This document shows, piece after piece, positions 12,089 to 46,079 of a DNA stretch of 64,000 nt. The translations under genes and the position numbers were made by a program. The notes below the pieces were generated by a model, which ran no database searches, was not told the DNA's origin, and saw only the letters and a program-made list of their open reading frames with translations. The stretch comes from an uncultured Candidatus Peribacteria bacterium (GTDB taxonomy: Bacteria > Patescibacteriota > Gracilibacteria > RBG-16-42-10): positions 13,280 to 77,279 of the forward strand of contig CAZDKI010000004.1 in assembly GCA_964506115.1 (NCBI GenBank), in the 5' to 3' direction. The number at the start of each line of letters is the position of its first letter. Position 1 is the first letter of the stretch.

Positions 12089-12230
12089 TTCTCGCTAGGG
12101 TCTTAGCAGCAAATCGTCTTTGCTTTAATCGTTAATATGTCTTAATCTTTTTTAAGCCTTGATACCTGAGTTGATGGAGGCTGACTCTTTGTTTGTGAAC
12201 TCTTCTCAAAGGGACCCCTTTGGAGCAATT

Positions 12231-12253
12231 CTCTACTTTCAACTCTCAACTTG
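12231..12253 (-). repeat. GTTGA(A/G)A heptad word array overlapping the HD-gene stop codon
   Basis: The minus strand reads caaGTTGAGAGTTGAAAGTAGAG. The last codons Q-V-E-S and the TGA stop of the HD gene lie inside it. Confidence 0.5.
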
Positions 12254-14692: not shown

Positions 14693-14746
14693 TTGATAAT
14701 TTTAAAATCTAAATTAATCACGAGAGCTCTTGGACTAAATGAAACG

Positions 14747-14848
14747 GGATCCTTCGCCGCCGCTACGCTTTACTCAGGATGAATTATGAGCCTCAACGCC
14801 TGAGGCTTGAGTTGCTTGATAATTCATCCTGAGCGTAGTCGAAGGATC
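14747..14848. terminator. inverted pair of GGATCCTTCG...CTCAGGATGAATT modules (long hairpin between convergent genes)
   Basis: The left arm ggatccttcgccgccgctacgctttactcaggatgaatt and right arm aattcatcctgagcgtagtcgaaggatc are complementary apart from indels. A central gcctca-acgcc-tgaggc hairpin lies between them. The element sits between the umuC stop and the convergent gene's stop. Confidence 0.7.
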
Positions 14849-14858
14849 TGGTCTACAC

Positions 14859-15275
14859 TTAGTTTGATATTTTCGTTAAATCTTCATGAATGATAATTGG
14901 CTTCACTGATTCTATCTCTGTTTTATAGTAAGCAATCTCCGGAATATCATTCCATAAGTAGACTTTTTGTTTCAGTACATGAGCGAATCCGATCTCGATC
15001 AAAGTGTTGCCACCGATGTAATTTTTGATGCCGTTTTTGTCTAAATTCAAAACTAATACTGCATCACCACCTTGCATCAAATTCCAAAACTCGGTTAGGG
15101 GATCAGCATAGGTTTTTTGCTCAATTTTCACTGTCTCTTTTTCTTGATCAGTTTTACCCACAAAGTGGGGAGCAAAGGAGGTGACATACGCTTGATGTCC
15201 TAAAACTTGCAGTTGATCTCGCACTACTAACATTGCTTCGGTATATTGCATGCTACCGATTACCCCTATCCGCAT
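14859..15275 (-). CDS. nucleoside 2-deoxyribosyltransferase-like protein
   Basis: N-terminal MRIGVIGS Rossmann-like start and IGGNTLIEIGFAHVLKQKVYL, which resembles the GT..E.G.A..lgKpv motif with a catalytic Glu. Confidence 0.55.
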   Translation of the reverse strand: MRIGVIGSMQYTEAMLVVRDQLQVLGHQAYVTSFAPHFVGKTDQEKETVKIEQKTYADPLTEFWNLMQGGDAVLVLNLDKNGIKNYIGGNTLIEIGFAHVLKQKVYLWNDIPEIAYYKTEIESVKPIIIHEDLTKISN

Positions 15276-17582: not shown

Positions 17583-17734
17583 CGAATTGCCAATTGAGAA
17601 TTGCGAATGGCGAATTTTTAATGCAGTGGGCACAATTCAGAATGCACAATTGTTGCTCAGGTGTATCTAAGCGAGCCGCCACACTGGCGTAATGGAGTGC
17701 AACTTTCAACTCTCAACTTTCAATTTTCAACTTC
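17583..17734 (+). repeat. composite intergenic element (GCGAAT-type array ... TTCAAC-type array)
   Basis: cgaattgccaattgagaattgcgaatggcgaattttt (17583-17619), gcacaattcagaatgcacaattg (17630-17652) and aactttcaactctcaactttcaattttcaacttc (17701-17734). The end modules match the copies at 40028-40209 and 44503-44680. Confidence 0.6.
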
Positions 17735-20440: not shown

Positions 20441-20683
20441 ATGTATTATCTTTATATTTTAGAGTGTTCAGACTCGACTCTTTATACGGGGATTACCGTT
20501 GATCTTGATCGCCGAGTGTTAGAACACAATACAGCGAAGAGTGGTGCTAAATATACCAAAGCTCGTCGGCCTGTGCGTTTGGTGTATTCGAAAAAATTTC
20601 GTAATCGATCATTGGCATCCAAAGCTGAAATTCACATGAAAAGGTTGTCACGAGCCCAGAAACTGGCATTAATACTATTTTGA
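20441..20683 (+). CDS. GIY-YIG nuclease family protein (small, stand-alone)
   Basis: MYYLYILECSDSTLYTGITVDLDRRVLEHN matches the GIY-YIG core. Confidence 0.8.
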   Translation: MYYLYILECSDSTLYTGITVDLDRRVLEHNTAKSGAKYTKARRPVRLVYSKKFRNRSLASKAEIHMKRLSRAQKLALILF

Positions 20684-27866: not shown

Positions 27867-27894
27867 GTTGAAAATTGAAAGTAGAAAGTTTTGC
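27867..27894 (+). repeat. GTTGAAA heptad array with GAAAGTTTTGC junction
   Basis: gttgaaaattgaaagtagaaagttttgc. Close in word content and identical in its 3' junction (gaaagttttgc) to 44503-44530 (gttgaaagttgaaaattgaaagttttgc). Confidence 0.55.
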
Positions 27895-37072: not shown

Positions 37073-37519
37073 ATGTACCGTCAAAATGTGGCTGCAGTAG
37101 TGATTAATCATGATAAACAAGTGCTTGTTTGTAAACGTAATGTTCCTCAAGAGCATTGGCAGTTTCCACAAGGTGGTGTTGATGAACACGAAAGTGAAGA
37201 GCAAGGTCTTTTACGTGAACTCCAAGAAGAATTAGGTTCCACTAAGTTCTCGTTACTTTACAAGTCCAAGCATCTGTATCGTTTTGAATGGCCCAAGAAT
37301 CAGCTTCGTAATGATGGCTTAATTGGCCAAGAACAACGTTATTACTTAGTTTTATTTTGGGGGGTAGACAGTGAGCTCAATTTAGAACAACGCTCTTTGA
37401 CTGATTTTAAATGGGTTGAACTTTCAGAAGTGATTGAAACTGTTTTTCCCACCCGTCGCCAAATCTACGAGGCTATTTTGCAAGAATTTATCCCTGTCAT
37501 TAAAGTTGCATCTACATGA
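37073..37519 (+). CDS. Nudix hydrolase (RppH-like)
   Basis: Nudix box QFPQGGVDEHESEEQGLLRELQEELG. Confidence 0.8.
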   Translation: MYRQNVAAVVINHDKQVLVCKRNVPQEHWQFPQGGVDEHESEEQGLLRELQEELGSTKFSLLYKSKHLYRFEWPKNQLRNDGLIGQEQRYYLVLFWGVDSELNLEQRSLTDFKWVELSEVIETVFPTRRQIYEAILQEFIPVIKVAST

Positions 37520-37524
37520 ATACA

Positions 37525-37634
37525 ATTGAAAGTGGAAAGTTGAAAGTTGAAATTTTTACTCCAGTGAGCAGCATGTCAGTAGGATCCTTCCCTTGCAAAA
37601 GCGACCTCAGGATGACTGACTCAATTCGCAATTC
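37525..37634 (-). repeat. composite intergenic element, short copy
   Basis: attgaaagtggaaagttgaaagttgaaattttt (37525-37557), ggatccttcccttgcaaaagcgacctcaggatga (37582-37615) and caattcgcaattc (37622-37634). Confidence 0.6.
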
Positions 37635-40026
37635 TAAAGGATGGTTGGTGTCTTTATGTATTGTTCTAGTAGCATTGGGTAATAATGTTGCTTCAGTACA
37701 AGCTAGTGATTCATTTCCTGATGTCTCTGCTGAATATCAATTTAGTCAGAGTATTCAGGTTTTGAAGGATCGTCATATTGTACAGGGTTTTCCAGATGGT
37801 ACTTTTGGACCTAATCGCTTAATCACTCGTGCTGAACTGCTTAAGATTGCTTTAGAGGGAGCTGGTGTGGCTACTGCTAATTTTGCTCAAAAAAACTCAC
37901 CGTTTCCTGATGTGTCTGCCGGGCATAGTTTGAGACAATATGTGATTTATGCTCAAGAACAAAGTATAGTCAGTGGTTATCCTGATGGTACTTATCGTCC
38001 TGATGATCCTACTAGTCGTGGAGAGGCAATTAAGATGTTGCTTAATATCAATAATGTCGCTACGGCCAGTGGTGCAGCATTTACTTGGCAGTATCAAGAT
38101 GTCGATAATGAAGACCCTCTGGCTCGTTTTGTCTATGCGGCTCGTGATCAAAAGGTGATTCCTAATAAGTATAAAGTAAATACCTTGGGTATTGGGGACA
38201 AAATTACTCGTGGCGAAGTAGCGGAGATGATGTATCGTTTGCTGACTTTACGTGAACAACGTCTCAATCAATTTCCTGAAGTAACGCAAGATATTGCTGT
38301 GGTGGCTGGAGCGTATCCTACTACTACTTTTACTAATGTTACTTTACAAGCGACCTTGCCTAAGACCATGGTGGCGCATACTTATTATGCGATCAATGCT
38401 ACGACTTCAGCGAGTATGGTTAAGTTACTTTTACAGAATGAGGCTGGTAAGCAGTGGTTATGGGAGTACAAGCCAGATCAAGGTAAAGTACGCTTCGATC
38501 TCCAATTTCCAGATGCTGGTACTTATAAAGTAGCTATTATTGCTGACAATGTGACCAAGGCGGCGTCTGTACCAGTGGCTGTTCGTAGTAATTGGAATGA
38601 AGTTTTGACTGATCCCTTACCTGCAGTCACCAGCCCACAATTTGTGGCTGCTGAGACTAATTTGACTACTCTGTCTTGGACTGGTGAGAAGCAAAATGTG
38701 GTAGTGAAACTGGTATGTGAACAAGGATCAAAGTCTGTTGAGAGATTTATTGTTAGTCCTGATCAAAAATGGCAATTAGACTATCAAATATTTGCTGGTT
38801 TTGGAGAAGGTGCTGTTAATTGTCGCTTGGCCCAATCTCAATTTAACTCTAGTTTTAGTTTGACTAAACAATGGAGTCCTACTACTAACTGGTCTTTTGA
38901 TGCCATTGAACATCATTTCCGCACTTGGATAAAAAACAATATATCAGTAGATACTTTGCCACTTTTTACGCGCGCAAGTCAGCTTACATTTACGGGTAAA
39001 GCCAGTATCCCACTTTCCAACTTTGCAGCTGTAATCAACCCTGATGGTTCAGTAAAAGTATTTCCACTAGGTGAACCCGAAAGCCAAACATTTGCTTCCA
39101 ATAAGCCTTGGTCTTTGCCAGTAGATCTCAGTAAAGATGGCGTCTACTTCTTGGAAATCAATGATACTCAAGGTATTGCTGTCCTGAATACCCCTATTTA
39201 TAAAGTAACAGGTATTCCAGTACTGCCAGACTTTGTCGATATGCAATCAGGTCTAGTGATTGAGCAAAAGAGCACTATTACCGGTCAACAGAAACAAGCA
39301 ATGATGCAAGATCTAGTTACCAGGATCAATGCTGTGCGATCAGCACAAGGAAAGAATCCAGTAACTCTTGATAGTGATTTGAGTCGTTTTGCCCAAGCTC
39401 ATGCTGACGATATGGTCGCTCAAGATTATTTCTCTCACCGTGATCGTGCTGGCAAGGGACCAGATGAACGTAAATTGCCATTCAATATTCTGCAGCCAGT
39501 AGGGGAGAATATTGCTTTTAGTGTGGATATCCCTGATGTCGATGCTGGTCTCCGTCGTAGTGCGGTGCATTTACTTAATATTTTGGATTCACGTTGGTCT
39601 CGTGTCGGTATTGGTTTAGCTAGAGCAAAGGATGGTTTGTTGTATGCAGTGGAAGAGTTCTCTACGCGATCATTTATTGCCAGTCCTTTTACTGACACTG
39701 AAAAAGAACAGCTCGCTCAAAGAACTCTCGATCGTATCAATGTCAATCGCCAATCAGCTGGACTCAGTCCACTCTTACGTGGTACCGAATTCCGAGCAGC
39801 GATGTTGAGTTGGGCTACTGCGCCTAGGAGCACCAATCTCCGCACAGCTTTACTTGATGCCGGTTTAGGTCAAGGTAGACTACTTAGCTCAGAAGGTGAC
39901 TATTCAGCAAACTTACCAGCTGAGCTTGCTCTCCAAGCAGCTGTTTCTGAGACGTCTATTACTAGAATGGACATGGCTGTTAGTTTTGAAGGAGAAAAAA
40001 TGCTAGTAGCGGTACTTCTCTATTAA
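37612..40026 (+). CDS. secreted SLH-domain / CAP (SCP, YkwD-like) domain protein
   Basis: Signal/TM WLVSLCIVLVALG. SLH repeats FPDVSAEYQF...TRAELLKIAL and FPDVSAGHSL...SRGEAIKMLL. C-terminal CAP motif AQAHADDMVAQDYFSHRD...GENIAF. The ORF opens at 37516, but its first 32 codons are repeat sequence. Confidence 0.7.
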   Translation: MTDSIRNSKGWLVSLCIVLVALGNNVASVQASDSFPDVSAEYQFSQSIQVLKDRHIVQGFPDGTFGPNRLITRAELLKIALEGAGVATANFAQKNSPFPDVSAGHSLRQYVIYAQEQSIVSGYPDGTYRPDDPTSRGEAIKMLLNINNVATASGAAFTWQYQDVDNEDPLARFVYAARDQKVIPNKYKVNTLGIGDKITRGEVAEMMYRLLTLREQRLNQFPEVTQDIAVVAGAYPTTTFTNVTLQATLPKTMVAHTYYAINATTSASMVKLLLQNEAGKQWLWEYKPDQGKVRFDLQFPDAGTYKVAIIADNVTKAASVPVAVRSNWNEVLTDPLPAVTSPQFVAAETNLTTLSWTGEKQNVVVKLVCEQGSKSVERFIVSPDQKWQLDYQIFAGFGEGAVNCRLAQSQFNSSFSLTKQWSPTTNWSFDAIEHHFRTWIKNNISVDTLPLFTRASQLTFTGKASIPLSNFAAVINPDGSVKVFPLGEPESQTFASNKPWSLPVDLSKDGVYFLEINDTQGIAVLNTPIYKVTGIPVLPDFVDMQSGLVIEQKSTITGQQKQAMMQDLVTRINAVRSAQGKNPVTLDSDLSRFAQAHADDMVAQDYFSHRDRAGKGPDERKLPFNILQPVGENIAFSVDIPDVDAGLRRSAVHLLNILDSRWSRVGIGLARAKDGLLYAVEEFSTRSFIASPFTDTEKEQLAQRTLDRINVNRQSAGLSPLLRGTEFRAAMLSWATAPRSTNLRTALLDAGLGQGRLLSSEGDYSANLPAELALQAAVSETSITRMDMAVSFEGEKMLVAVLLY

Positions 40027-40027
40027 T

Positions 40028-40209
40028 AATTGCGAAGTGCGAATGGCGAATTTTAGGCATGAGACTTCATAATTCAATCGAACTTTATGTCTGCCGGATC
40101 CTTCGACTTCACAGCGTTACGTTCAGGATGAATTGATAGGCTATTGGTGCTTTCCTGAAACTCCAGTGCTTATCAAACTCTCAACTTTCCACTTTCAATT
40201 TTCAACTTC
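40028..40209 (+). repeat. composite intergenic element, full copy
   Basis: aattgcgaagtgcgaatggcgaatttt (40028-40054), cttcataattc, ggatccttcgacttcacagcgttacgttcaggatgaatt (40096-40134) and aactctcaactttccactttcaattttcaacttc (40176-40209). Module-by-module match to the reverse complement of 44503-44680. Confidence 0.7.
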
Positions 40210-40214
40210 ATTCA

Positions 40215-41282
40215 ATGGGCAAACTATCTTATTCAGCACTGGAGACATTTCGTACCTGTCCTTTGAAATATAAGTTTGCTTATATTGATAAGATTCCTGT
40301 GACTCAAAGTGGAGTGATGCAGTTTGGCTCTTTGATCCATAAAGTAATGGAAGAGCTCTACGCCCATCAGATGTTGCCCATTAGTAAAGAAGAGCTGATT
40401 CATCTATTTAGTGCTCAATGGAAGCCGAAGCTTTATAAAGACGAGTATCAAGCACAATCTGATTTTGAATCTGGCGTCGCTATCGTTGAACGTGAATGGG
40501 AGAAGAAACAAGCTCAACCTGAACCAGTTACTATCGCTCGGGAGAAATACTTTTTGTTACCAATAGCTGAAGGTTTTGATCTTTCTGGTCGTATCGATCG
40601 TATTGATAAAATTGGTGATAATAGTTTGGAGATTATTGATTATAAAACTGGGAGGACCGTCCCTAGTGAAGCGGAAGTGCGGAATAATTTACAGTTGTCG
40701 ATTTATTATTTTGCTTTATTGAAGCTTTGGCCTAGTACACAGCAAGTAACTCTTTCTTTGTATTATTTACGGCCTGATATGAAGGTTAGTTTCGTAGCAG
40801 AGCCTGACTTGCTCGAACAGGCGAAAGAAACCTTGCGTGATTTAGTAGAGCAAATTCGCACTACCAATTATGCGCCAACCCCTGGAAGACATTGTGACTA
40901 CTGTGATTTTAGGCCTCATTGTCCGATGATGAAGCATAGCAGTGATGCACAAGCTAGACCTGATGATCCTGTAGTTGTCGAAGGCAGTTTTTTAGCTGAT
41001 CGTTATTTAGCTTTGATGAATGAAAAACGTACTCTTACTGAACAAGTCGACGCTACCAAAGAAGCGATTGGCCAGTATTTAGATGCTACTGGTTATGCGC
41101 AGCTGTCCGGTAAACAGGGAGCTGTCCGTCGCATTGTGACCAAGACAAAACGATTGCAGGGGAAAAAGGTTCAAGAGTATTTGGCTAGTCAAAATGTATT
41201 GGAGCAGTTTGTCGAAACGAGTGAGTCTACTAGACTAATAGCACAGGAAAAGAAGATCCCTGATATCGAAGAAATTGTATGA
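40215..41282 (+). CDS. PD-(D/E)XK nuclease with Cas4/AddB-type Fe-S cysteines
   Basis: N-terminal TCPLKYKF. GRIDRIDKIGDNSLEIIDYKTGR (D...ExK). QLSIYYFAL (QxxxY). CDYCDFRPHCP completes a C...CxxCx5C set. Confidence 0.75.
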   Translation: MGKLSYSALETFRTCPLKYKFAYIDKIPVTQSGVMQFGSLIHKVMEELYAHQMLPISKEELIHLFSAQWKPKLYKDEYQAQSDFESGVAIVEREWEKKQAQPEPVTIAREKYFLLPIAEGFDLSGRIDRIDKIGDNSLEIIDYKTGRTVPSEAEVRNNLQLSIYYFALLKLWPSTQQVTLSLYYLRPDMKVSFVAEPDLLEQAKETLRDLVEQIRTTNYAPTPGRHCDYCDFRPHCPMMKHSSDAQARPDDPVVVEGSFLADRYLALMNEKRTLTEQVDATKEAIGQYLDATGYAQLSGKQGAVRRIVTKTKRLQGKKVQEYLASQNVLEQFVETSESTRLIAQEKKIPDIEEIV

Positions 41283-43788: not shown

Positions 43789-43918
43789 TTTTTAGTTCAA
43801 CCAATAAACATTATCTTTCGGTTGATTCGCTGTTACGAACCAATGTTGTTTTTTGTCCAATACTATTCTTTGGTTCGTCGACTAGCTTTCGGTACAGTAA
43901 CATCCTTACCAAAATTCT

Positions 43919-44119
43919 ATGTCTATGCGTCCAGGTGAAGGTAATGAAAGTGGTTTATCTCGTACAGGTCAGCAACCGTGGCATCGTATGGAAAATCGTT
44001 CTGGATTACAGCACGAAATTTTTCGCAGAAGGATGTTGGAACATACTACGGTCACTCGTGCTAGATTCTTAGCTGTACACCGACGCACTTTGAGCAGACA
44101 AGGATCTAGAAGAAGTTAG
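43919..44119 (+). CDS. small Arg-rich ORF, doubtful
   Basis: 66-aa ORF, very basic, no homology I recognise. It follows a structured 130-nt spacer, and a heptad array starts 7 nt after its stop. Confidence 0.2.
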   Translation: MSMRPGEGNESGLSRTGQQPWHRMENRSGLQHEIFRRRMLEHTTVTRARFLAVHRRTLSRQGSRRS

Positions 44120-44125
44120 ACTCTA

Positions 44126-44318
44126 GTTGAAAGTTGAAAGTTTCTTTAGCTAGATGGTTCTATTAAGGACTACCAACTAATTCATCCTGAGCGAAACGAA
44201 GTGGAGTCGAAGGATCTGGCTGGTTTATAGTTATTCCAAACAAAGTATCGGCCGGATGCTTCGACAGGCTCAGCATGGATTTATTGTGCATGTCACCCTG
44301 AGAGTAATCGAAGAGCTG
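44126..44318. repeat. heptad array plus three GGATCC/CAGGATGA-type modules (mixed orientation)
   Basis: gttgaaagttgaaagtttc (44126-44144), aattcatcctgagcgaaacgaagtggagtcgaaggatc (44179-44216), degenerate ggatgcttcgacaggctcagcatgga (44254-44279) and tcaccctgagagtaatcgaagagctg (44293-44318). Confidence 0.6.
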
Positions 44319-44353
44319 CACTCTAAATCCTGAATTTTTGTGTACAACAAAAT

Positions 44354-44429
44354 TGGTTGCGGGGGCTGGACTCGAACCAGCGACCTCAAGGTTATGAGCC
44401 TTGCGAGCTGCCAACTGCTCTACCCCGCG
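44354..44429 (-). tRNA. tRNA-Met (anticodon CAU), initiator-like C1xA72 acceptor end, CCA encoded
   Basis: The reverse complement reads CGCGGGG-TAGAGCAGTTGGCAGCTC-G-CAAGG-CTCATAA-CCTTG-AGGTC-GCTGG-TTCGAGT-CCAGC-CCCCGCA-A-CCA. Confidence 0.9.
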
Positions 44430-44502
44430 TCAGGTATTAATTGCTTCTGCAATCGACTGCATTGTACTCACTTCCAATAAATCTGCAAGCATTGGAGCTC
44501 AC

Positions 44503-44680
44503 GTTGAAAGTTGAAAATTGAAAGTTTTGCAAGCATAGGGGGGCATCTTGAGATCACCAATCAATTCATCCTGAACGGAACGGAGTGGAGTTGAATGATC
44601 TGGCTGACATGCAACTCGGGAGAATTATGAAGCCAGGTGCCCGTGGCCAAAATTCGTCATTCGCACTTCGCAATTCGCGG
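44503..44680 (-). repeat. composite intergenic element, full copy (reverse orientation)
   Basis: gttgaaagttgaaaattgaaagttttgc (44503-44530), aattcatcctgaacggaacggagtggagttgaatgatc (44563-44600), gaattatgaag, and aaaattcgtcattcgcacttcgcaattcgcgg (44649-44680). Confidence 0.7.
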
Positions 44681-44744
44681 TAGTGAGATTGCGTTTCTGG
44701 AAAGAATGAACTAATTTAGTGCATCGATAACTACTATTTATTTT

Positions 44745-46079
44745 ATGTCTGACCCATCAAAAATTGAAGGAGTTCCTAATGAAACTCCAAAAGAATTGTC
44801 TTTAGCTTCCGGTGCTAGAGCTGAGGTGAAGGCTGTACTAAGAGAACCTGTTACGTCTTTTGAAATCGCAGAACTATCTTCAATGTCTCCTCAATTAAGA
44901 AGGATCCTAGGTCGATCTGTATACGCGGTAAAATCAGTAGCTGAGGAGGGTGAAAAAGAAGTAGGTTTAGAGTATCAAACCTCTATGATGATTCATGGAA
45001 GGGCTGTACCAGGTATGGTGAGAATAATAGGAACTATGTTAGATAAATCTGGTGCTCCTAGGAAAATTATTCTAGGTTTCTATAGTGTCCGAGGTGTTAT
45101 TACAGTACAAGATGCAAACCTCGGCTCAGGAGGAACTACTGATGCTCCTTGGCTAAGTTTGTGTTTTGAACCCAATGCACGTGTAAAAGCAACTACTAAT
45201 ACTTTAGGCACTGCTCTGCTTGAAGGAATGACCAGTGTGCTGCCATTTAAAGAGTTTACTGATGCTGATGATGTTGGTCCTGAGCTTAATTTTTTAGGTA
45301 ACGAGCTTTTGAATTCTAGCTCAGCTTTTGAGAATGATACTGGAGGGACTGAGGCTAGTGAAGATCCAGAATATATTCCGGTGGCCGGTCTATCTGGCGA
45401 TGCAATGATTCCATTAAATGATGGTCTTTATGATTGTAGAATCCATGTGGATTTTGAGTCATTTAATGCTCAAGATAGAAAAGCACGAGTATGTACTATC
45501 GGTGTGAGAAGCAGAGATCAATCACATTGGCTTACTATTAGTTATTCTAGTGTTAGAGATGCTGTGGTTGTCGGTGGTTCCGATCTCAGTTCAAAACAAA
45601 TTAAAGATATTGTGGGAGCTGTTGCTGAATTTGCTGGTATCTCTATCGCACGAGCGCGCACCGTACCAGTAAGAAGAATGACTCATTTTGGTACTACCGA
45701 AGCAACTCCTGCTGAGTTAGATGCGATGAAGTTAGGTTTGTCAGTGAGAGCAATCAAAGCCTTGATGACGAAGTATGAGTCATCTTTTCAGGCTAGAGGA
45801 GAAGGGGCGGGTGTTTCTAAGAAAGTTATGACAAAGCGAGGAGAATATACGGTGGTGGTAGCACCTCATCGATACCAATCTATTCAACCTAAAGTAGGTT
45901 CTAGTGGTGTTAATACTACGAGTACAGTTGGAGTTTTATTTCACTTTGCTCCAGTTGCTGATGCAAATAAACTAGCAAGTGTATTTATTCCTACCGATGC
46001 CCTAAGAAGCGGAACCGTACGATTCTCTGGGCGTGTAGTGAATGTTGCTTTGTTTAATGAAATCTTTCTTACGAGCTAA
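44745..46079 (+). CDS. hypothetical protein (island gene 1)
   Basis: 444-aa ORF, no signal peptide or TM, no recognisable motif. Ala/Val/Gly/Arg-rich. Confidence 0.6.
   Translation: MSDPSKIEGVPNETPKELSLASGARAEVKAVLREPVTSFEIAELSSMSPQLRRILGRSVYAVKSVAEEGEKEVGLEYQTSMMIHGRAVPGMVRIIGTMLDKSGAPRKIILGFYSVRGVITVQDANLGSGGTTDAPWLSLCFEPNARVKATTNTLGTALLEGMTSVLPFKEFTDADDVGPELNFLGNELLNSSSAFENDTGGTEASEDPEYIPVAGLSGDAMIPLNDGLYDCRIHVDFESFNAQDRKARVCTIGVRSRDQSHWLTISYSSVRDAVVVGGSDLSSKQIKDIVGAVAEFAGISIARARTVPVRRMTHFGTTEATPAELDAMKLGLSVRAIKALMTKYESSFQARGEGAGVSKKVMTKRGEYTVVVAPHRYQSIQPKVGSSGVNTTSTVGVLFHFAPVADANKLASVFIPTDALRSGTVRFSGRVVNVALFNEIFLTS

Follow-up and report, generated by a model that had tools for sequence, protein, structure and literature searches.

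A mosaic repeat in the intergenic spacers of a Peribacteria genome: a probable Ssn-type tagged hairpin between heptamer arrays

What is the repeated sequence that occupies the entire spacer at positions 40028-40209 of the window (the whole 64,000-nucleotide stretch of Candidatus Peribacteria DNA analysed here), between a gene for an SLH/CAP-domain protein (TAA stop at 40024-40026) and a gene for a PD-(D/E)XK nuclease (ATG at 40215)? The DNA has a G+C content of 41% and comes from a 1.27-Mb genome of the Peribacteria (candidate phyla radiation (CPR)/Patescibacteria; 12 contigs, rated 98.6% complete), called G000 below, with its relatives (genome sizes 0.7-1.9 Mb) called G001, G002, G003 and G006 and contigs labelled C1, C2 and so on. 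A cyanobacterial origin, which the heptamers and the G+C content might suggest, was rejected, this being a Peribacteria genome. An earlier description of the window from its letters (the original prediction) saw in this spacer one composite element, present in at least four copies and both orientations, and proposed a structure like a repetitive extragenic palindrome (REP) or bacterial interspersed mosaic element (BIME), a processing or terminator unit, or a family of small-RNA genes. The first of these proposals is the one that fits: the middle module (hereafter the core) is a tagged palindromic hairpin of REP type, and the whole is a BIME-like mosaic. On comparisons of sequence, and with a probability that we put at roughly 0.7, the spacer element is a mosaic of two unrelated kinds of repeat in which the core would be a diverged hairpin of the CGTC-REP/NTS-SRM (Ssn) type. 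The core has expanded to about 100 copies in the lineage of G000 and G001; the flanking arrays (AATTGCG, GGCNTCA and TTCAACT) are 7-base tandem repeats, like short tandemly repeated repetitive (STRR) sequences, at the outer edges of the spacers; and no published report of such hairpins in this phylum was found.

The original prediction called for further copies genome-wide. A hidden Markov model (HMM) of the core gave 104 matches across G000, about 90% of them outside called open reading frames (ORFs) though the genome is 90% coding (simple ORF calling); the recurrence of the element was thereby confirmed, but its number is about 100 cores rather than the few copies first counted. On its tagged strand the core reads (G/T)TC-ATCCT...AGGAT-C-YGG. 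Units are 28-50 nt long, and 95.8% of cells were paired in 41 aligned copies, a value that none of 500 shuffles reached; the covariation score of the core stem was likewise unmatched (0 of 500 shuffles). Stems genome-wide were ATCCT/AGGAT (52), ATGTT/AACAT (9), ATGCT/AGCAT (2) and ATCTT/AAGAT (1), with fully compensated changes in 12 copies, and an inner pair of the core is G-C in 25 copies and A-U in 11. One nested hairpin has the stem CCCCGC/GCGGGG in G000 and, at the orthologous position of G001, TTTCGC/GCGAAA. The C that follows the palindrome is invariant in cores, and is seen as the invariant G of GGCC[AG]G-ATCCT on the plus strand (tagged-strand ATC-YGG-CC). In the focal spacer the tagged strand is the minus strand, where the tag TTC precedes a stem of ATCCT (40125-40129) pairing with AGGAT (40098-40102) around a 22-nt variable top, followed by the C and the YGG tail; the plus strand of 40096-40134 reads GGATCC...CAGGATGAATT, and the complete unit is GGATCCTTCGACTTCACAGCGTTACGTTCAGGATGAATT. 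The GGC(A/C) end of the adjacent left arm is, on the minus strand, the 3' tail that follows the hairpin (ATC-YGG-CC).

A partner for hairpins of this design is offered by the Ssn nucleases described in 2025, in a paper that leaves Patescibacteria unmentioned (Chenal et al., Nat Commun 2025, PMC11893778). The 94-amino-acid SsnA binds its target NTS (CGTCATTCCCGCGMAVGCGGGAATCYRG) solely as single-stranded DNA and cuts it a few bases upstream. Binding depends most on the C that follows the palindrome and cutting on the three bases in front of the palindrome; of the ssn genes, 71% have the motif on at least one side and 42% on both (PMC11893778). Three small GIY-YIG ORFs were found in G000 (Table 1), of which one, P_a, lies outside the window and has residues Y10, Y20, R29, H34 and E67 in place (by inspection). 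A GTCAT hairpin, GGAGTCATCCTGAACGAAGTGAAGGACCC, stands upstream of P_a and is directed at the gene, while an inverted hairpin, GTCATCCTGAATCCCGCATGCCCGGGATGAAGGACC, likewise with a GTCAT tag, overlaps its 3' end. The ORF reads through this downstream hairpin (G000:C5:77720-77790) and ends in ...GPSSRACGIQDDSSDR, giving an in-frame C-terminal tail of about 30 residues. A search of NCBIfam with P_a returned no specific family.

The same arrangement recurs in relatives: the orthologue in G001 has TTCAT-type cores on both sides, a homologue in G002 has variant hairpins on both sides, and one in G006 is flanked by TTCAT hairpins. Among 20 homologues from 20 genomes, a tagged hairpin facing the gene was found upstream in 16 (within 400 nt and pointing at the gene), an inverted one downstream in 12, and both in 11; the detector gave about 180 matches in a shuffled 1.27-Mb genome, or about 0.03 per flank. 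These flanking hairpins include a near-NTS form, GTCATTCCAGCGAAGGCTGGAATCCAG, and a perfect form of the core stem, GTCATCCTGAATTTAGTTCAGGATCCCC. Across 401 sampled genomes of the class, to which all class-wide counts refer, nuclease homologues occurred in 298, with up to 11 copies per genome, and the core motif GATCCTTC-N(8-36)-TCAGGATGA in 56 (42 of 229 genera; reversed-pattern control 0). Many unrelated families of the class hold 8-23 copies of the motif, each with its own top; in those genomes the unit, read from its opposite strand, is GTCAT...ATC, and it has similar units with different stems as neighbours. Neither the link to a nuclease gene nor the spread of the core motif through the class had been noticed in the original prediction.

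Two side observations concern the nuclease homologues and the motif. Many of the homologues from the class's other families have 1-6 TGA codons in frame, as would fit the decoding of TGA as an amino acid by some lineages of the class. The pattern GATCCTTC-N(14-30)-TCAGGATGAATT gave single exact matches in metagenome-assembled genomes (MAGs) of Magasanikbacteria, Kerfeldbacteria, Roizmanbacteria, Saccharibacteria, Omnitrophota, Planctomycetia and Thermoanaerobaculia, those in Thermoanaerobaculia on several contigs of one MAG, and the Enterobacteriaceae matches to this pattern have a near-constant 34-35 nt; some of all these matches may belong with the cores in one hairpin superfamily and not be due to chance.

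The position of the hairpins around nuclease genes bears directly on a different proposal, that cores bind a factor for chromosome organisation or DNA uptake and have no relation to the GIY-YIG nuclease, comparable to the gyrase or IHF sites in BIMEs or to the uptake sequences of Neisseria and Haemophilus. Conserved unpaired bases beside a short stem do suggest recognition by a protein, the location of cores is independent of orientation, and the motif is spread across the class. Uptake sequences, however, number in the thousands and also occur within genes. The cores number only about 100 and are almost all intergenic, the hairpins flank nuclease genes specifically (upstream in 16/20 and on both sides in 11/20, against about 0.03 expected), and G002 and G003 manage without core expansion; we regard this proposal as highly improbable.

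Several observations nevertheless weigh against an Ssn-type hairpin. The tag was TTC in 82 and GTC in only 8 of 90 core-type hairpins and, as the bases before the palindrome are key for cutting, most copies might be bound and left uncut. The basal stem has just 5 continuous base pairs, beyond which come a 2x2 mismatch and a single covarying pair, and the tops run to 12-32 nt; the published degenerate pattern for SRMs (HGTCWYN(0-2)YYVSBRHN(0-5)WNVSBRGN(0-2)RNCYNB) had 2 matches in G000, neither of them a core, against 1-6 in five shuffles. Among solved structures P_a comes nearest to UPF0213 proteins, and the match is weak (E 0.003). Since the nuclease is present in 298 of the 401 genomes, its co-occurrence with the motif discriminates poorly, and G002 has three nuclease homologues yet no core expansion. 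Cores showed no bias with respect to replication strand (33 vs 40). Finally, an Ssn reading leaves the heptamer arrays, and the placement of hairpins between them, unaccounted for.

The arrays were counted as fuzzy three-heptad arrays of the AATTGCG type (A arrays) and the TTCAACT type (T arrays), which gave 62 and 79 in G000, respectively, and 1 and 1 in a shuffled genome. A module census added 15 three-heptad GGCNTCA arrays, 21 copies of a mini-hairpin CCAAAGGGACCCCTTCGGGGCAAC (TTCG loop), CAGAATT and TGATCTC heptads, and a second mini-hairpin, TCCCGC-N4-GCGGGA; the latter is nested inside cores and CCAAAGGGACCCCTTCGGGGCAAC inside T arrays. Overall, 23% of the spacer bases of G000 match another spacer, and at least 25 repeated bases occur in 196 of the 390 spacers of at least 100 nt, amounting to 2% of the genome. 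A literature search with repeat sequence words returned unrelated primers only. A palindromic module, GAATGAAAAGGTAATAGGTAACAATGAATAA...TTACTTATTACCTATTCATTTTTAATTCGA, was also seen between outward-facing pairs of cores (C2:229129-229345, C6:33443-33841 and C5:11370-11595).

Where cores are flanked by both kinds of array, the A and T arrays keep a constant mutual order and direction, with the core between them in either orientation (27 vs 17) and no other arrangements. The individual copies listed in the original prediction were recovered: the module order at 40028-40209 reads as described, the reverse complement of 44503-44680 matches it module by module (blastn 71.5% over 179 nt, E 1.7e-20), the end modules recur at 17583-17734 with a different middle, the compact copy (37524-37634) has its core flipped relative to its own arrays, and partial copies lie at about 12231-12251, 27867-27894 and 44125-44225. 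Copies such as these invite the view that the whole 110-180-nt composite is a single non-autonomous mobile element, like a miniature inverted-repeat transposable element (MITE), copied in one piece: full-length copies share a common module order and 69-72% identity over 170-180 nt, and at least 8 have both arrays with the core in one same orientation. Against this, among the 18 T-array copies the pairwise distances in one part (left arm, core or right linker) did not correlate with those in another (Mantel r 0.00, -0.03 and -0.02, at modest power because the right parts align poorly), the core takes both orientations within the frame, the frame at 17583-17734 has no core at all, and single modules have been exchanged at orthologous sites of the sister species G000 and G001. 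The array ends are not complementary, so that terminal inverted repeats are lacking, and no target duplications are visible at sites that are empty in G002.

No searched transposase family (DDE, rve, TnpB or reverse transcriptase (RT)) was found in G000: PF01797, PF07282, PF00078, PF01609 and PF00665 were all absent, control genomes for PF01797 did give matches, and the genome has one Xer-like tyrosine recombinase. The composite is thus a recurrent architecture of independent modules and not one mobile unit; the original denial of a classic MITE holds, the idea of one composite element does not, and copying in one piece is very unlikely. The 23S rRNA intervening-sequence/four-helix-bundle family PF05635 was found in 2-7 copies per genome of about 1 Mb in all six family genomes searched, against 1 of 14 controls; as it is present in all relatives with or without cores, it is uninformative for the cores.

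Comparison with relatives shows how quickly the spacers turn over. The focal gene pair is separated by 12 nt in G003, by 147 nt with different heptamer arrays in G002 and by 188 nt in G000; contigs of G001 stop on both sides of the site, and the nearest metagenome relatives of the neighbouring nuclease gene are only 34-37% identical and thus of no use for empty-site analysis. In G002, searched as a whole genome, there were zero core HMM matches and zero A arrays. Over 554 syntenic gene pairs, spacers with a core had a median of 190 nt in G000 vs 84 nt in G002, and repeat-free spacers 15.5 nt vs 16 nt. In syntenic spacers of G000 and G001 (median protein identity 91%), a core was present in G000 only at 14 sites, in G001 only at 1 and in both at 4, a count that is biased because G001 contigs break at repeats. 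Boundaries between the two genomes are sharp, with flanks near-identical until the middle becomes abruptly unalignable. Orthologous sites of G001 differ by the gain or loss of 10 nt in the top of the core or of a mini-hairpin module, by a T array standing in place of an A array and, in one case, by a core in the opposite orientation. Identity between G000 and G001 was 82.8% for orthologous cores, 72.4% for the remaining spacer and 83.4% for coding sequences, so the cores are conserved at the level of coding DNA. Besides breaking assemblies (G001 contigs end at them), the repeats lengthen ORFs or create spurious ones. Phyletic subtraction (genes present in G000, not in G002) left 258 genes and was too noisy, and contig C8 was rejected as a foreign segment since it carries housekeeping genes.

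Conservation of this degree is also what would be expected if the elements acted mainly at the RNA level, ending, protecting, processing or helping to translate neighbouring messages in the manner of the REP/BIME stabilisers of E. coli or the TAACTGA leader repeats, with the nuclease link secondary; hairpins would form in RNA too. The placement of the arrays lends weight to this: A arrays abut stop codons (median distance 7.5 nt), T arrays face the start of the downstream gene in 45 cases vs 19 (45/64), 17 of them within 30 nt of the start, and in co-directional spacers the T arrays, and with them the frame, follow transcription 28 vs 11. Among 925 longer genes of G000 just 42 have a Shine-Dalgarno-like 4-mer at -20 to -4, leaders lacking such a word therefore being the rule, and the TAACTGA repeats of Beggiatoaceae, which the T arrays resemble, mostly stand immediately before start codons that lack a ribosome-binding site (MacGregor 2015, PMC4679880).

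The core itself gives a different picture. Its orientation relative to the flanking genes is random (23/21/17/16), in agreement with the original statement that copies occur in every strand context. Whole elements folded as RNA (both strands of 40027-40214, and 44495-44690 on its minus strand, which is the element orientation) did not outperform shuffled sequences (z -0.7 to -0.1), a U-tract is absent, consensus terminators and promoters are not enriched at elements, and Rfam had no match to the element at threshold (best sub-threshold sR32, 13.2 bits, E 0.3); the proposals of a terminator or processing unit and of a small-RNA gene family are accordingly not supported. Wobble and mismatch counts (U-G 2 on one strand and 7 on the other) are too few to separate an RNA from a DNA constraint. 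The 12-nt spacer in G003 means that the element is dispensable at the focal site, and a tag confined to one strand, together with the C that follows the palindrome, is in keeping with recognition of DNA by a protein, SsnA being a nuclease that does not bind RNA (PMC11893778). A role mainly in RNA is therefore unlikely in our judgement.

In Neisseria and other bacteria, hairpins of this kind are bound in single-stranded form by the Ssn nuclease, a small GIY-YIG protein of one domain that cuts them a few bases before the tag, and the gene for it is typically enclosed by two inverted hairpins, much as in a miniature insertion sequence. On the Ssn-type reading the hairpins here would be treated likewise. 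P_a is thus a candidate for the protein that binds or cuts these hairpins, and the spread of copies may depend on it, directly or via repair or recombination after single-strand cuts. The hairpins sit between arrays in either orientation, with small secondary hairpins nested inside both. The effect could be like that in Neisseria, where incoming or exposed single-stranded DNA would be trimmed and recombination or transformation modulated. A bolder extension, which we hold to be a rather long shot, makes the Ssn-type nuclease and its hairpins the engine of copy-and-overwrite spacers in Peribacteria: when single strands are cut beside hairpins, in the course of replication, repair or DNA uptake, other spacers would serve as templates for the repair that follows, shared heptamer arrays would provide the homology by which whole modules swap between spacers, and the TTC copies, bound but poorly cut, would therefore be free to multiply.

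A relative of the Ssn system would then fill about 100 spacers in a 1.27-Mb genome that otherwise spaces its genes by 15 nt. Should biochemistry bear out the pairing, these ultra-small bacteria, probably scavengers of DNA, would offer a rich natural store of hairpin and nuclease specificities, and the cutting of single-stranded DNA may belong to their handling of imported or exposed DNA. The fast, module-wise turnover between sister species makes these spacers suitable for studying the spread of REP-like repeats and heptamer arrays in the absence of a transposase.

Table 1. Repeat modules in the window and small GIY-YIG ORFs of G000 (window positions unless a contig is named)
Feature	Position	Strand	Basis or remark
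T array after a mini-hairpin of the CCAAAGGGACCCCTTCGGGGCAAC family (here ...caaagggacccctttggagcaa)	12180-12253 (array 12231-12251)	+	array census
Inverted core pair filling a convergent gene spacer	14743-14859	.	cores 14748-14783 (tag minus) and 14823-14848 (tag plus)
A-array...T-array frame without core, unrelated middle	17583-17734	+	end modules 17592-17618 and 17701-17734
Stand-alone GIY-YIG ORF, 80 amino acids, UPF0213/YhbQ-like	20441-20683 (G000:C4:33720-33962)	+	no tagged hairpin within 700 nt
Solitary T array beside a tRNA gene	27867-27894	-	array census
T array, compact copy	37524-37559	-	inverted-repeat pairs
Core, compact copy, canonical GTCAT tag (GTCATCCTGAGGTCGCTTTTGCAAGGGAAGGATCC on minus strand)	37583-37616	-	detector
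A-array remnant, compact copy (aattcgcaattc on plus strand)	37622-37634	-	sequence reading
Focal A array, ~3.9 AATTGCG-type heptads (aattgcg aagtgcg aatggcg aatttt)	40028-40054	+	starts 1 nt past the TAA
Focal degenerate GGCNTCA-type heptads, three (aggcatg agacttc ataattc); the cttcataattc of the original prediction	40055-40075	+	alignments
Focal left arm, aatcgaactttatgtctgcc (20 nt); family consensus AACTGTATGTCGGCC	40076-40095	+	alignments
Focal core, tagged hairpin repeat (minus strand AATTCATCCTGAACGTAACGCTGTGAAGTCGAAGGATCC)	40096-40134	-	compensatory stem variants; detector 40097-40132
Focal variable linker, core to T array	40135-40175	+	conserved less than any other part (pairwise distance 0.78 on average)
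Focal T array, ~4.5 TTCAACT-type heptads	40176-40209	+	79-array family; ends 5 nt before ATG 40215
T array, partial copy behind a tRNA gene	44125-44145	-	array census
Core, partial copy (TTCATCCTGAGCGAAACGAAGTGGAGTCGAAGGATCTGG)	44178-44225	+ (tagged strand)	HMM; detector 44181-44216
Short core variant, compensated stem ATGCT/AGCAT (CGGATGCTTCGACAGGCTCAGCATGGAT on plus strand)	44253-44280	-	stem census
T array, inverted full copy	44503-44530	-	array census
Core, inverted full copy, stem ATCAT/AGGAT with one mismatch	44561-44610 (C4:57840-57889)	+ (tagged strand)	core HMM
A array, inverted full copy	44644-44675	-	inverted-repeat pair
P_a, small GIY-YIG ORF	G000:C5:77720-78097 (outside the window)		PF01541 59.3 bits; 94-amino-acid core and read-through tail
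Third small GIY-YIG ORF, another subtype	G000:C1:198134-198484		

Some of the other copies in the window carry information of their own. The spacer at 14693-14858, with the inverted core pair, measures 166 nt in G000 vs 3 nt in G002, and in G001 both cores are conserved and the sequence between them is not. The cores at 44178-44225 and 44253-44280 also form a pair, with tags facing outward. The tRNA gene at 44357-44429 (minus strand) is bracketed by repeat copies in G000; the same tRNA is inverted relative to the flanking genes in G001 (window 43789-44745 vs G001:C40:3516-4983), where the region has about 900 nt extra. The longest SLH/CAP ORF (37516-40026) begins inside the compact repeat copy, which is stop-free in that frame; the stretch 37521-37691 cannot be aligned with G002 orthologues, homology to G002 starting at 37692, so the true start of the gene probably lies further downstream, near 37642-37692. 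Five tRNAs were the sole matches to Rfam at gathering threshold in the window. The 16S 3' end GGATCACCTCC is absent from the G000 assembly, in which the rRNA operon may be unassembled or divergent.

Among known systems, the element is like the enterobacterial BIMEs in being a mosaic of a palindromic unit, in either orientation, and short motifs in limited arrangements, but unlike them (REP or palindromic unit (PU)) it has no GTAG tag, no REP-associated tyrosine transposase (RAYT; PF01797 absent), and heptamer tandem arrays as companions. It is likewise not a GTAG REP or REPIN, the GTAG tag and a Y1 (IS200/IS605-type) transposase both being missing in G000. The cyanobacterial STRR sequences are reportedly intergenic heptamer tandem repeats, and the small dispersed repeats (SDR) of Nostocales are said to be nested in larger repeats; the tiny hairpin modules nested here in other repeats and heptamer arrays resemble the latter by description, with no homology claimed. 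With STRR and TAACTGA repeats (the latter from Beggiatoaceae, Cyanobacteria and Bacteroidetes; PMC4679880) the arrays share 3-5 copies of a 7-nt unit in spacers, and with TAACTGA a position, for the TTCAACT array, mostly a few bases before the start codon of genes without a ribosome-binding motif. They differ from both in their units, in the several array families set in fixed order round a hairpin, and in their CPR lineage.

The CGTC REPs, reported in five phyla (none of them Patescibacteria), have stems of 8-9 bp that almost always begin with AT, loops of 4-5 nt, a variable tag (TGTC, CCTC) and short tails (CCA), and occur as inverted dimers with no transposase (Di Nocera et al. 2013, PMC3733652). 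Like CGTC-1 to -4 (Neisseria dRS3, Rickettsia RPE-4/-6), the cores have an A-T stem start, a variable tag, short unpaired tails, frequent inverted dimers, heterogeneous stems and loops, no dedicated transposase and a copy number that differs markedly between related species; unlike them, they have shorter and interrupted stems, much longer tops and a YGG(CC) rather than CCA tail. From NTS and the SRMs, the cores differ in their mostly TTC tag, their 5-bp stem with a mismatch, their 12-32-nt variable or nested top, their failure to match the published pattern, their place between heptamer arrays and their Peribacteria host. What they share with NTS/SRM is an oriented hairpin (with a GTC tag in a minority of copies), a palindrome starting with AT, a conserved C and a YRG tail (...GGGAATCYRG in NTS, ...AAGGATCYGG here), a multi-copy, intergenic distribution, and a putative GIY-YIG nuclease gene, its core about 94 amino acids long, between two inverted hairpins; some G000 copies even enclose the TCCCGC-N4-GCGGGA hairpin, which is close to the NTS stem itself.

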